IMG/VR virus record: IMGVR_UViG_2585427738_000003
Length of the DNA: 15,598 bases
Origin: a virus
Taxonomy: Duplodnaviria > Heunggongvirae > Uroviricota > Caudoviricetes
Reading direction: 5' to 3' (one strand)
Part shown: piece by piece, positions 2,846-12,751 of the stretch
Numbering within the stretch: position 1 is the first letter of the stretch
Layout: each line of letters opens with the position of its first letter
Notes under the pieces: generated by a model
What the model saw: the letters and a program-made list of their open reading frames with translations, nothing else
Database searches by the model: none
What the model was told of the DNA's origin: nothing
Made by a program: the position numbers and the translations under genes

Positions 2846-3116
2846 GATGTTACCGTAGTATGTGAGTATCCATCGAATAGACACCAAGCAAAAAAGCTCC
2901 CGAAGGAGCCTTCATTTTCACTTTTTTAAATCCAACGACAGACGGCTGGCATTTAAGTATTGTGAAATATTATCAAATGTAATCATCATTGATTTACAAA
3001 AGATACATTTTGCCCCGAAAGGATTCATGTCAGAAACATCAAAAGATGATGTTCTATACTGGGAACCATGACAACACGGGCATCTAAAGTGAATATGGTT
3101 TGTAATATTGTCTACC

Positions 3117-3329
3117 TCAAAGCGCCACTACATGAACAGCGGCAGGACCTTTAGGTCCGTTCTCAATACCAAATTCAACTTCCTGATTCTCAGTTAATGT
3201 TTTGAAATCGTTGCTCTGAATTGCTGAGAAATGGACAAACACATCTTTGCTGCCATCTTTCGGCGTGATGAAACCAAAACCTTTTTCAGGGTTAAACCAT
3301 TTCACTAAACCAGTCATTTTGTTAGACAT
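3117..3329 (-). CDS. cspI: Cold-shock protein CspI (CspA family, 70 aa)
   Basis: [70 protein letters not shown] carries the canonical RNP motifs (KGFGFI, VFVHF). AAGG lies upstream of the ATG; about 360 bp of non-coding sequence lies upstream, consistent with a long cold-shock leader. Confidence 0.9.
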
Positions 3330-3690
3330 AATTATTACCTTTTGAAGAAATTAGCCCTTGGGCAGAATGGTCCGAAAAAAATATCAGAGAGAAAAACCAA
3401 CAAGGAAATCTCAAGAGGTACAAATAATAAAATTATAACAATGACTGCTTCAGATAAATTTGTAACAAACCAGAACACCATTAACGCATGATTAACCACC
3501 CATAGCAAGGATTACTTTTGTAAAGAAAAACACAGCAATGAAAGAATAGCTTTATTTATTAATAAAACGTGTCATTCTGATTAAGACCTTTTATCTTACC
3601 CTTAAGATTTCAGGAATTTTGGCTCATGGAAGAGTCCTTTTTATTCAAATTTTACATTCCGCGATGTAAATGTTCCGATTTAATATTACC

Positions 3691-5720: not shown

Positions 5721-5999
5721 GATTGTGGTGCTTTTTGTGGGAGTCATCCACTTACGCACTTTGTTTTGCCATGCCAGCAGTTAGCTTCTGCTGTAAAACT
5801 ATTCATGCAGCAAACCTGCACTTCACCACAATGGTTAGCATACTTTTCCTGATTAAGATTTTGCCAAATATGCTAGCCATTGTTTCATGTATTGGACCTC
5901 CTTACTTTTTATTAAAGAGATCCAATATTCACTACTCTGTCCGTATCTCTACTCAGGCATCAGCCTTCTTCGTTATCGTATACAGACGAGCGATGAATT

Positions 6000-6215
6000 T
6001 TAATCAGTAATGATGACATTTGCTGCTGCAGGACCTTTAGCACCACTCTCTATAGAGAAGGTAACCTTTTGACCTTCAAATAAGGTTCGATAATTATCAT
6101 TCTGAATCGCAGAAAAATGCACAAACACATCTTTACTACCATCAACAGGAGAAATAAAGCCGAAACCTTTATCAGCGTTAAACCATTTTACTAAACCAGT
6201 CATTTTATTTGACAT
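6000..6215 (-). CDS. cspB: Cold-shock protein CspB (71 aa)
   Basis: [71 protein letters not shown] is a canonical CspA-family sequence; divergent from cspF across a roughly 300-bp region. Confidence 0.9.
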
Positions 6216-6515
6216 TCTACATTCCTTAACTTGAGCCTTTCGGCATAAATGGTTTGCATAACAGAAACGACTTCGTACTTAATTGGAGAGACTCAAAGAA
6301 GGAATAAGTGAATAACACCTGAAATGAGAACTGCTTTAGTAAACTACTTCGTATATCGTCTGTTCTTCAAACCGACGCAATCATTAACGCATAGTTGAAC
6401 ATATGAAGCAATGTTTATTTTAGACATCCAGCCATCTTCAACCCCATCAAAAAACTATAGCTTTCTTCAGGAACGTGTGTATAGTGCGCCAAGTTATCAG
6501 TATTAAGGAATTTTT

Positions 6516-10544: not shown

Positions 10545-10570
10545 CTTGTAATTACAAATGTCATTACAAG
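10545..10570. promoter_or_regulatory. relBE operator-like near-palindrome (relO) in the relB promoter region
   Basis: CTTGTAATTACAAATGTCATTACAAG contains the perfect palindrome TTGTAATTACAA (10546-10557) and a related repeat TGTCATTACAA, 12-37 bp upstream of the relB start codon. Confidence 0.6.
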
Positions 10571-10759
10571 TATCGCACTACAACATGCTTAGGGCAAGTC
10601 ACGAAGGAAGTCAGAAAGTAGTCGTAAGAACGGTGATCACTGTCCGCTTTGTGCCAGGAGCAGCCATTGCTAAGTCCATCCTGTATTGTGCAGGTCAGCT
10701 CGTTTTTAAAGAGTCCGGCCATCATCTTACTGGTACAGACACCATATACTTTGTGACGG

Positions 10760-10894
10760 TCAGGCTAGACGCATCGCGCGACCTTCGGGAACTAAATCCC
10801 CTTTCCAGCTATAAAGCGAAGCCAAACGAATACCTGCTGCTTGTGCAAGTTTTGTTTTTGAACCGAAATACAAAAGAGCGTCAGTTTTAAGCAT
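10760..10894 (-). CDS. dicC: DicC-like (Cro-like) regulator, only 44 codons here, possibly truncated
   Basis: Minus-strand ATG at 10892-10894, divergent from dicA; MLKTDALLYFGSKTKLAQAAGIRLASLYSWKGDLVPEGRAMRLA then TGA. I recall DicC as about 76 aa with the same N-terminus, so the 3' portion appears absent or replaced. Below the track size cut-off. Confidence 0.55.
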   Translation of the reverse strand: MLKTDALLYFGSKTKLAQAAGIRLASLYSWKGDLVPEGRAMRLA

Positions 10895-10977: not shown

Positions 10978-11385
10978 ATGGAAACAAAAAATTTAACTAT
11001 CGGCGAACGCATCAGGTATCGTCGGAAAAACCTCAAACACACCCAAAGGTCTCTTGCTAAAGCCCTGAAAATCTCCCATGTGTCTGTATCACAATGGGAA
11101 CGGGGTGATAGTGAACCTACAGGGAAGAACCTTTTTGCCCTCAGCAAAGTATTGCAATGCTCACCAACATGGATTCTATTTGGCGATGAAGACAAGCAAC
11201 CAACACCACCTGTTGAGAAGCCAGTTGCCTTATCCCCCAAAGAACTAGAGCTCCTTGAGCTGTTTAATGCACTGCCAGAATCAGAACAGGATACCCAGCT
11301 CGCCGAAATGCGAGCTCGAGTAAAAAACTTCAATAAACTCTTTGAAGAATTACTAAAAGCCCGTCAGCGGACAAATAAAAGATAA
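10978..11385 (+). CDS. dicA: DicA repressor (XRE-family HTH, phage C2-like), 135 aa
   Basis: METKNLTIGERIRYRRKNLKHTQRSLAKALKISHVSVSQWERGDSEPTGKNLFALSKVLQCSP... has a classic XRE helix-turn-helix (QRSLAKALKISHVSVSQWERG). Confidence 0.9.
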   Translation: METKNLTIGERIRYRRKNLKHTQRSLAKALKISHVSVSQWERGDSEPTGKNLFALSKVLQCSPTWILFGDEDKQPTPPVEKPVALSPKELELLELFNALPESEQDTQLAEMRARVKNFNKLFEELLKARQRTNKR

Positions 11386-11551
11386 CATCATCAATGAGTT
11401 ATCTTTTACCACATCAATTATGTTAGCTATAGCATACAAAATCACTTGACCGATATGTTAGTCATGGCTAATCTTGTTTGCATCAACACACCGCACGGTG
11501 TTCTCAGCAAACAGTTCCGCTACCCCAGCGTTAAGGGGAAATGAGGTCAGC

Positions 11552-11707
11552 ATGGATACTATCGATCTTGGCAACAACGAATCTCTGGTGTACGGCGTGT
11601 TTCCAAACCAGGACGGCACGTTCACCGCAATGACGTATACCAAAAGCAAAACGTTTAAAACCGAAAATGGTGCCCGTCGCTGGCTGGAAAGAAACTCAGG
11701 TGAGTGA
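11552..11707 (+). CDS. ydfA: YdfA-like small protein (51 aa)
   Basis: ATG at 11552 with GAGGT about 4 nt upstream; MDTIDLGNNESLVYGVFPNQDGTFTAMTYTKSKTFKTENGARRWLERNSGE. The track ORF starts earlier at 11474. Confidence 0.75.
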   Translation: MDTIDLGNNESLVYGVFPNQDGTFTAMTYTKSKTFKTENGARRWLERNSGE

Positions 11708-11708
11708 T

Positions 11709-12284
11709 ATGGATTTCGACACAATCATGGAAAAGGCTTACGAAGAATACTTCGAAGGCCTTGCCGAAGGCGAAGAAGCTCTCAGCTTCAGTGAGTTTAA
11801 ACAGGCACTCAGAATAAGAATGTGCTCTCACAATGACGCGGAGCACAAATATGAGAAGCAAAATCAGACCGCAGAAAATTTTGTTCTGGAACCCGGAGAA
11901 ACGCTTTTCAAAATTCCCGTTACGTGCCCCATTTGCGGTTTTACATCAGAAGAACTTGACGACTCCTGTAACAATCAGGAAACAACCAAGTATGTCGAAG
12001 ATGATACCGAGTGCGCACGAAGAACGATTATATCCACGAGTCCAAACTCCAGGACCAATAAATCTCACTATGAGAGGGTGATTAATCCACTCCCCCAAAC
12101 CAATAAAAAAGATGCCGGAGGACAAAAAACCCAATGGAACAACGGGATATCTGTCAAAAAAAGACGTTCCATTAAAGACAAACAACGCAGCGCCAACAAC
12201 TGTAAGCGCTTTATACCAGTAATCAATTTTCATGTTCTTAAGCGGATTTATTGGTGGTTGCGACATTGCTTAATGAATCCTTAA
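11709..12284 (+). CDS. 191-codon ORF covering the ydfB/ydfC region; cysteine-rich middle, basic C-terminus
   Basis: ATG at 11709, one nucleotide after the ydfA stop (TGA-T-ATG); MDFDTIMEKAYEEYFEGLAEGEEALSFSEFKQALRIRMCSHNDAEHKYEKQNQTAENFVLEPGETLFKIPVTCPICGFTSEELDDSC... then a Lys/Arg-rich tail. The frame is open for 191 codons. The track ORF (11667) starts at an upstream GTG. Confidence 0.5.
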   Translation: MDFDTIMEKAYEEYFEGLAEGEEALSFSEFKQALRIRMCSHNDAEHKYEKQNQTAENFVLEPGETLFKIPVTCPICGFTSEELDDSCNNQETTKYVEDDTECARRTIISTSPNSRTNKSHYERVINPLPQTNKKDAGGQKTQWNNGISVKKRRSIKDKQRSANNCKRFIPVINFHVLKRIYWWLRHCLMNP

Positions 12285-12543
12285 AACTGTGGTGATTTTA
12301 AGGATACCACCTCGCCTGACGTGGTTAAAAGCAGGCACACAACACGAAAGCGCACGGCGAAGTTCGTCTCACTGTACGGTGTCGTTAAATTTAATTCGAC
12401 CGTGCGCTTCCGGTTGTGGCAACCCGCAAAATGGCGCGGCGGTAAGTATGGCGGGGTTATTCCTTCCCCGTTGAGGACACCGGGTTGTCAGGTTGACCAT
12501 ACGCTTAAGTGACAACCCCGCTGCAACGCCCTCTGTTATCAAT

Positions 12544-12601
12544 TTTCTGGTGACGTTTGGCGGTATCAGTTTTACTCCGTGACTGCTCTGCCGCCCTTTT
12601 T
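12544..12601 (+). ncRNA. dicF: DicF small regulatory RNA (ftsZ-targeting sRNA processed from the dicA-operon transcript)
   Basis: TTTCTGGTGACGTTTGGCGGTATCAGTTTTACTCCGTGACTGCTCUGCCGCCC followed by TTTTT matches the DicF sequence as I recall it, including the GGCGG...CCGCC terminator stem and U-tail. Confidence 0.85.
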
Positions 12602-12607
12602 AAAGTG

Positions 12608-12751
12608 AATTTTGTGATGCGGTGAATACGGCTAAGCGCACGCGGAACAGTTAAAACCAAAAACAGTGTTATGGGTGGATTCTCTGTATCCGACGTTAAT
12701 TGTTAACTGGTTAACGTCACCTGGAGGCACCAGGCACTGCATCACAAAATT
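12608..12751. repeat. 13-bp perfect inverted repeat (AATTTTGTGATGC at 12608-12620; GCATCACAAAATT at 12739-12751) bracketing the dicF-dicB spacer
   Basis: The arms are exact reverse complements; the left arm starts 7 nt after the dicF U-tail and the right arm ends 20 nt before the dicB ATG. Confidence 0.8.

Follow-up and report, generated by a model that had tools for sequence, protein, structure and literature searches.

Two predicted genes overlapping on opposite strands form an exchangeable cassette in the dicBF operon of Qin-like prophages

Protein-coding reading frames that lie antisense within an annotated gene have been reported from E. coli, e.g. nog1, laoB, asa and pop in EHEC, and such antiparallel genes are mostly young, narrowly distributed and accompanied by expression data. 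In phage lambda, rexA and rexB are transcribed together with cI, in one direction and without overlapping, and in phage P22 the control of sieB involves the antisense RNA sas and the escape protein Esc, the latter a shorter in-frame form of SieB encoded on the same strand. The sieB gene provides a prophage-expressed function that halts superinfecting phages midway in their lytic cycle (PMC10883804), and the dicBF operon of the K-12 Qin prophage has been described in its own right (PMC5069750). We searched the literature for ydfB and ydfC, for the motifs and the accession treated below and for antisense overlapping prophage genes; this yielded the dicBF and SieB background, and the gene pair that is the subject of this study was not described there.

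The window, i.e. the whole stretch of 15,598 nucleotides that was analyzed, is a segment of a Qin-like lambdoid prophage with relB, dicA, ydfA, an ORF of 191 codons, dicF, dicB, ydfD and an exonuclease gene. It shares with the Qin prophage of K-12 the operon, the slot between ydfA and dicF and the first 33 codons of the ORF, which are those of ydfB and, as in K-12, translationally coupled to ydfA. Past codon 33/34, in contrast, the window carries another cassette, ydfC is absent, and a gene is present on the minus strand that the K-12 slot, occupied by ydfB (42 aa) and ydfC (72 aa), does not contain. The features are as follows.

11552–11707, plus strand: ydfA, the upstream gene (Pfam DUF1391, E=1.7e-28).
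11709–12284, plus strand, stop included: the 191-codon ORF, an in-frame fusion of ydfB codons 1–33/34 with the plus-strand gene of the cassette.
11709–11809, plus strand: ydfB-derived 5' part, identical to K-12 in the alignment, with the left recombination breakpoint at ~11809.
11810–12338, both strands: exchanged cassette of ~530 bp, GC 0.42, in place of the K-12 ydfB tail, ydfC and ~140 bp.
11820–12284, plus strand: probable native plus gene of 154 aa, with an in-frame ATG at codon 38 of the ORF.
11913–11942, plus strand: peptide motif I-P-x-x-C-P-(I/V)-C-G-F with one zinc-knuckle-like CPxCG; codon differences among variants are nearly all at third positions.
11946–12266, minus strand: gene for a 106-aa membrane protein, ATG at 12266–12264, stop at 11948–11946.
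12267–12336, minus strand: conserved leader of the membrane gene (tentative), with the Shine-Dalgarno sequence AAGGA at 12282–12278.
12328–12301, minus strand: TTAACC-N16-TGgTATCCT, an extended -10 promoter or an anti-Shine-Dalgarno arm.
12336–12314, minus strand: hairpin GCCTG-N13-CAGGC, with one compensatory pair in the variant L235.
12545–12596, plus strand: dicF small RNA, landmark of the dicBF operon (Rfam RF00039, 76.7 bits).

A first-pass annotation of this DNA had described one uninterrupted ORF of 191 codons that starts a single nucleotide past the ydfA stop and is far longer than expected by chance, and all of this was borne out. The ydfA stop codon TGA occupies 11705–11707, and from the ATG at 11709 the plus frame remains stop-free up to the TAA at 12282–12284; counted from an upstream ATG at 11667, the same frame comprises 205 codons. 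The base composition of the ORF itself gives a stop probability of 0.0595 per codon, at which a run of 205 open codons is expected with P ~3e-6 per start, and in mononucleotide shuffles of the whole window open frames this long occur with a mean of 0.03. The acidic N-terminus, the CPICG motif and the basic C-terminus recorded at the time are all there as well: residues 1–37 of the 191-aa product have a net charge of -6, CPICGF is encoded at 11925–11942, and the tail from residue 80 to 191 carries a net charge of +9. A megablast search with 11553–12400 as the query retrieved the ORF at ≥98.5% identity from 793 of 5426 complete E. coli genomes, and the cultured phage HannyBb (PP925841) also carries it at this level. 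Among PHROGs families, phrog_35040, for which no function is given, matches the 205-aa plus ORF over its full length, while phrog_2061 (YdfB) matches residues 1–34 only (E=3.3e-21); similarity to the 42-aa YdfB does not extend over the full length, as the sequences diverge after codon 33/34. Since the frame is intact in 26 of 28 distinct alleles and a selection signal is seen in diverged relatives, the 191-codon ORF is in all likelihood a genuine gene that is translated.

The 106-aa membrane protein is read from the opposite strand, in exact codon register with the plus ORF (12264-11709 = 555 = 3 x 185), the last ~107 codons of the plus gene being the exact in-phase antisense of the entire membrane gene. 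This gene (12266–11946) had gone unseen in the first-pass annotation. An AlphaFold2 model of the protein (pLDDT 86.7, pTM 0.72) shows helices at residues 17–32, 42–62 and 85–105 and a beta-hairpin at 65–79, in agreement with the hydropathy profile. We found 60 database homologues, many of them full-length at 34–58% identity, in Yersinia, Herminiimonas, Reinekea and many metagenomes, and relatives were located at 29 genomic loci in several phyla; overall, full-length homologues of 30–58% identity are spread over many bacterial phyla. An alignment of 41 sequences contains 13 invariant columns, including the motifs WYKA and GEWxNHP, substitutions in the gene cluster at its own third codon positions, and the pN/pS ratio of this frame is 0.11–0.3 in close pairs, with a median of 0.49. 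Homologues, invariant columns, a confident model and purifying selection thus combine to show that the predicted membrane gene is real. The protein has no family match in Pfam, NCBIfam, PHROGs or PADLOC, and what is uncovered here is a widespread membrane-protein family that lacks an entry in all four. Foldseek searches of the model against the PDB and BFVD gave nothing at E≤0.001, with best values of 0.017 in BFVD and 0.45 in the PDB, and the connexin and holin rows in their output (a 'Holin' model at E=0.35) are noise. A class I holin, likewise of three transmembrane helices and ~105 aa, was considered and rejected because of the location in an immunity/early region and the lack of a holin profile match. 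A scan of viral contigs with the Yersinia homologue produced no match.

The stretch 11815–12300 is carried by 806 RefSeq complete E. coli genomes, in 785 of them at ≥99% identity, and is left unannotated in most: 27 of 30 records in a spread sample are blank, and only few hold a 'hypothetical protein'. Elsewhere PGAP annotates a truncated ydfB or, alternatively, a hypothetical protein of 191 aa. The membrane gene is almost never called, and other pipelines mostly predict the 205-aa plus ORF in its stead (1798 member sequences vs 141 for the membrane protein).

In relatives of the cassette, the plus-strand gene has an ATG of its own, 20–68 codons before the overlap (32–50 in most), preceded in most variants by a good Shine-Dalgarno sequence, usually at a distance of 6–10 nt. 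These ORFs are 134–187 aa long and in nearly all variants end 7–12 codons past the ATG of the membrane gene (15 in L246). The motif IPxxCPxCGF is present in every enterobacterial variant, just upstream of the overlap, and its codons wobble at the third position (ATT/ATC/ATA, CCC/CCA/CCT/CCG, TGC/TGT, GGT/GGA, TTT/TTC). Over the non-overlapping N-terminal part, pN/pS by the Nei-Gojobori method is 0.06–0.27, and 0.10–0.26 in the closer pairs. In a Pantoea/Enterobacter-like group the domain reads M(D/N)YEFFERL....PGSVxIDRENSTVxLxGW, with pN of 0.07–0.20 vs pS of 0.23–0.91. A prophage of Roseateles, with a membrane protein of just 41% identity, encodes PPGATITPFYFNCPKCGH and keeps the PG-x9-CPxCG spacing of the window. 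Proteins of 150–155 aa are called for the gene in Enterobacter, Klebsiella, Serratia and Paucibacter. As evidenced by these comparisons, the predicted plus gene is a real gene, with an N-terminal domain under purifying selection.

Searches with its product in Pfam, NCBIfam, PHROGs and PADLOC gave phrog_35040 and phrog_2061 as the only informative hits; a Lar-like match at E=0.38 was discarded. The CPxCG element provides a single CxxC pair and is confined to a Cys subgroup, the Pantoea/Enterobacter-like members being devoid of the Cys motif, so that zinc binding is not a feature of the family. The same holds for a zinc ribbon of the FmdB type, which the pattern (Y/F)x(F/V)xCPxCG recalls and to which the Roseateles/Paucibacter homologue owes its UniRef name ('FmdB zinc ribbon domain' protein): membership requires two conserved knuckles, whereas the plus family keeps one CxxC pair, often none, and is without a Pfam match. 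An analogy to lambda N, an idea that had arisen from the basic tail and from a position immediately behind the repressor in some contexts, was dropped as well, for the N-terminus lacks an arginine-rich motif, the charge varies, and other phages have the gene between cro and cII.

Stops tend to be rare in the frame that is antisense to a gene and in phase with it, as they require TTA, CTA or TCA codons in the sense strand, and the openness of the plus frame was therefore assessed against a null derived from each gene's own third-position composition. The prophage-type subfamily, defined by the loop NGTG..(F/Y)P..P and with a GC content of 0.40–0.64, comprises 26 distinct coding sequences that together contain not a single in-phase antisense stop, vs 84.7 expected. 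When these were reduced to 15 clusters differing at ≥40% of third positions, with the most favourable member taken from each, the 15 diverged lineages still had 0 stops vs ~46 expected (joint log10 P = -22.6). Note that a control sister subtype has 27 stops vs 52 expected under the same null, which is therefore about two-fold too high; rescaled accordingly, it predicts ~24 stops for the 15 lineages, and P is ~4e-11. The 15 cluster representatives contain the following numbers of stops.

Sense frame (membrane gene): 0
Sense +1: 46
Sense +2: 92
Antisense in phase (plus ORF): 0
Antisense, second frame: 53
Antisense, third frame: 157

Both coding frames of the pair are thus open beyond chance (0 + 0 vs 46–157 stops), and each of the two genes is under purifying selection, with pN/pS of 0.11–0.5 for the membrane gene and 0.06–0.27 for the N-terminal domain of the plus gene. 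Family members of the other loop subtype have 3–17 in-phase antisense stops at comparable GC.

Inside the overlap the plus frame behaves differently from its N-terminal domain. Here pN/pS is ~1.03, and among homologues the tail varies in net charge from -3 to +14 and in Cys content from 0 to 9. AlphaFold2 modelled the 191-aa product with a mean pLDDT of 48 and below 50 in the tail, only the helices derived from YdfB being moderately confident. Taken together, these comparative data show selection on the sequence of the membrane protein, on the N-terminal domain of the plus protein and, over the overlap, on the plus frame simply staying open; as judged from the alignments, the plus tail is a segment that must stay open while its sequence is free. 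The proposal in the first-pass annotation that a very basic C-terminus points to a nucleic-acid-binding protein is not supported by this analysis, as the tail is an antisense read-out of the codons for a hydrophobic membrane protein. Of the homology search and structure prediction that had been suggested for the 191-aa product, the former yielded homologues under selection, the latter a poorly modelled tail and no support for a nucleic-acid domain.

A tail that forms a functional domain and contacts the membrane protein or a nucleic acid, beyond serving as a translated spacer, would be in keeping with the maintained openness, with the hydrophilicity of all tails (GRAVY -0.4 to -1.3) and with the last 8–12 residues past the overlap, which are alike among variants (..FLFTPIGKF). 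The residues of the tail are however without purifying selection, and with their drift in charge and Cys content and the low pLDDT we consider such a domain unlikely.

We likewise see little room for the plus frame being a shadow ORF, in which case the membrane gene alone would be functional and the 191-aa product not made or irrelevant. Two frames exactly in phase do constitute the classic shadow arrangement, the tail has the neutral pN/pS and low-confidence model that would be expected of one, GC-rich members of the other subtype frequently lack stops too, and the probability of finding no stop is only 0.003–0.23 in any single lineage. All 15 diverged lineages are open, however, vs ~24–46 stops expected, the sister subtype accumulates its 3–17 stops at the same GC, and the frame extends upstream through a domain with pN well below pS to a Shine-Dalgarno sequence and ATG, and closes within a few codons of the membrane ATG in nearly all variants. 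Two rare E. coli alleles (L115 and L133) have one stop each in the plus frame, and in L122 the N-terminal part of the plus gene is gone, which indicates that truncation is tolerated at least briefly. Truncated plus ORFs of 86 aa also occur in two Enterobacter-like sequences (P0101 and P0103).

With the antiparallel genes of EHEC the pair has in common that a protein-coding ORF lies antisense within another gene. It differs from them in that the overlap is complete and in phase, and in that the support is comparative, from 15 lineages in several genera. A complete antiparallel overlap in which one frame is selected for its sequence and the other for an N-terminal domain and for openness thus has comparative rather than anecdotal support, and the debated reality of antisense ORFs in bacteria and phages, together with the question of what selects them, becomes open to experiment in HannyBb and in ordinary E. 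coli.

The genomic contexts of the cassette fall into three types. In the window and its close relatives it resides in the dicBF operon, an operon of the early-left type, after ydfA or in place of ydfA-ydfB. In Yersinia, Pantoea and the Escherichia-type variants of 58% identity it follows immediately behind the repressor gene, on the pL/dicBF side, and the plus gene shares the strand of the repressor. Enterobacter/Pantoea-like phages have it on the pR side, where it separates cro from cII in the order S24 repressor, then divergently P22_Cro, plus gene and Phage_CP76. In each context analyzed, the plus gene follows the direction of early lytic transcription and the membrane gene runs counter to it.

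The pL-type variants share the leader of the membrane gene, with the AAGGA Shine-Dalgarno sequence and TTAACC-N16-TGgTATCCT. An alternative pairing within this leader, UAUCCU...AGGAUA, would hide the Shine-Dalgarno sequence. Covariation is slight (RNAalifold), and a relaxed scan is compatible with a promoter and with an anti-Shine-Dalgarno hairpin alike. A strict scan of 11300–12700 returned no promoter, and terminator-like matches remained at chance level; the promoter of the membrane gene is thus a tentative candidate with a weak match to the consensus.

The explanation that best accommodates these data is a nested pair of membrane and plus genes with the architecture and selection described above and, by inference, a division of labour between the lysogen and early antisense transcription, and on the whole we think it rather likely to be correct. 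Its architectural part, two overlapping genes on opposite strands, appears highly probable from the comparisons, and its functional part, in which a membrane protein of the lysogen would be switched off by early antisense transcription, is offered as a tentative model. The membrane protein would be a 'moron' expressed in the lysogen, made while the early promoters are repressed, and may serve in superinfection exclusion or abortive infection, or act as a toxin. Once the prophage is induced, early transcription would cross its gene in antisense orientation and silence it by transcriptional interference and antisense RNA. The same transcription would yield the plus protein, whose conserved N-terminal domain may have the membrane protein or some early function as its target.

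Ribosome coverage protects transcripts from Rho-dependent polarity or RNA decay, and the lambda cro-cII interval contains a Rho-dependent terminator, tR1. In the cassette the open plus frame would most likely serve to let ribosomes cover the antisense stretch of ~320 nt and thereby prevent Rho-dependent polarity or decay of the early transcript, which has to reach dicF/dicB/exo or cII/O; a sequence-specific task of the tail is less likely than such a ribosome-covered spacer, the alternative being a tail that functions through its composition alone. In several phages the next gene follows 17–30 nt past the stop of the plus ORF. Note that bridging to the next gene is not fully valid for the window, because its plus ORF stops 260 nt before dicF. 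We also considered that sense and antisense genes might form a lysogeny/lysis switch, in which the membrane protein would be neutralised by the N-terminal domain of the plus protein and possibly also by its tail, which is hydropathically complementary. Such a switch would amount to a self-immunity encoded opposite the very gene that is controlled, and from the sequence data at hand we judge it to be rather doubtful.

The logic of the pair is that of sieB/esc/sas, rexAB and type I toxin-antitoxin loci, whereas its form recalls the antiparallel overlapping genes. A sister Qin-like prophage has sieB in exactly this slot, on the minus strand and antisense to the dicBF operon. The likeness is one of position and strand only: the 106-aa protein has no sequence or Pfam relation to SieB, no significant Pfam, NCBIfam or PHROG match places it in that family, and the plus protein is encoded antisense, whereas Esc is not. 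Like rexA and rexB, the cassette sits next to an immunity region and combines a small inner-membrane protein of several helices with a soluble partner, but here the two genes occupy different strands, and that of the soluble partner is part of the lytic operon. PADLOC returned no defence-model match for either protein, and neither has the defining features of any of the sequence families compared. The pair is best regarded as a putative prophage moron set antisense in an early operon, with unusually strong comparative support and an unusual signature of selection.

A type I toxin-antitoxin-like addiction module would consist of a membrane toxin held in check by the plus transcript, with the plus ORF in a secondary role. 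As in loci of the hok/sok type, a small hydrophobic protein is encoded beneath a fully complementary transcript, the leader may form a hairpin that sequesters the Shine-Dalgarno sequence, and the module is mobile in immunity regions close to toxin-antitoxin genes (relBE and hokD here, ParE/HigB in relatives). On the other hand, a protein of 106 aa and three helices is twice the usual size of type I toxins, and the complementary transcript is an mRNA of ~150–190 codons that is kept open, not a short non-coding RNA. As judged from its orientation, moreover, this transcript would be repressed in the lysogen in all contexts, the opposite of a constitutive antitoxin, and we find the module improbable on these grounds.

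How the cassette came to reside behind ydfA can be read from the alignment with K-12. The pairwise alignment is identical up to ~11809 (YdfB residues 1–33), then unrelated, and homologous again from ~12339; in line with this, the megablast match of 11553–12400 to K-12 strains covers no more than its initial 254 bases. YdfC has no similarity to the ORF anywhere (BLASTP E=17), and the DNA is unrelated as well. In three other prophages (P0067, P0068 and P0070) the cassette sits upstream of an intact ydfC, into which the ORF reads on, and ydfC is therefore an independent gene rather than a decayed half. With ydfC separate, the alignment identifies the ORF as a chimera that arose by cassette exchange with an in-frame breakpoint inside ydfB, and shows 11810–12338 to be a mobile cassette of two predicted genes that took the place of ydfC and the end of ydfB in a Qin-like prophage. 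Placed in frame, the left breakpoint would cause the plus gene to be read as a 191-aa fusion of YdfB(1–33) to the plus-gene product, coupled to ydfA.

That the ORF is instead the intact ancestor of which K-12 ydfB (42 aa) and ydfC (72 aa) are decayed halves would account for the shared residues 1–33 and for PGAP marking ydfB of such strains as lacking its C-terminus, and is scarcely tenable in view of the unrelated sequence between ~11809 and ~12339, the E-value of YdfC, the tandem with intact ydfC and the many phages in which the plus gene has its own ATG and no ydfB part. Of the intact ancestral gene envisaged in the first-pass annotation there remains a probably real gene, uninterrupted in nearly all alleles; its descent into ydfB and ydfC does not hold. 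The alignment with K-12 that had been suggested as a check confirmed that K-12 lacks the same long ORF, and revealed replaced sequence in place of decay by frameshifts or stops. The attractive inference of an ancestor of two K-12 y-genes is thereby corrected, and the dicBF operon is seen to have an exchange point inside ydfB.

Other prophages fill the slot in different ways. In the Qin-like prophage with sieB (L006, 1940–2311, minus strand) an intact 42-aa ydfB is followed by the minus-strand sieB gene in the slot that corresponds to 11810–12338 of the window, and in another (L005) the same slot holds a different pair of ORFs, 121 aa on the plus and 66 aa on the minus strand, that overlap at their 3' ends. 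With such different contents, the 3' end of ydfB looks like a hot spot of cassette exchange. A decayed cassette with multiple interruptions is found in Shigella flexneri (L029, 4001–4282), and one YdfB fusion (P0082) has a frameshift.

Beside distant homologues of the membrane gene in Desulfobulbales genomes (L030–L035) there is a nearly invariant small gene, convergent with the homologue and 60–480 nt downstream, whose product (..ATCPSCGMFHLTRxEIDQLNSEKFTESQDFAKLRDEAEES) also bears a CPxCG motif. We rejected the notion that this is an ancestral, non-overlapping form of the pair, given that CPxCG is common, the distance is variable and the small gene is far more conserved than its neighbour; the synteny is probably coincidental.

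Further differences to K-12 concern the region upstream of ydfA. In a strain record identical to the window (L001, 2006–2342, corresponding to the region 10564–10894 of the window) ydfV and dicC are annotated as abutting truncated pseudogenes, which suggests that a segment between relB and dicA was deleted relative to K-12, with flxA, ydfW and ydfX missing. Finally, two thermoregulator leaders of the cspA type were identified on the minus strand of the window, at 3090–3474 and 5984–6376 (Rfam RF01766, 114 and 159 bits), and these presumably belong to the cold-shock-protein paralogues of the Qin prophage.
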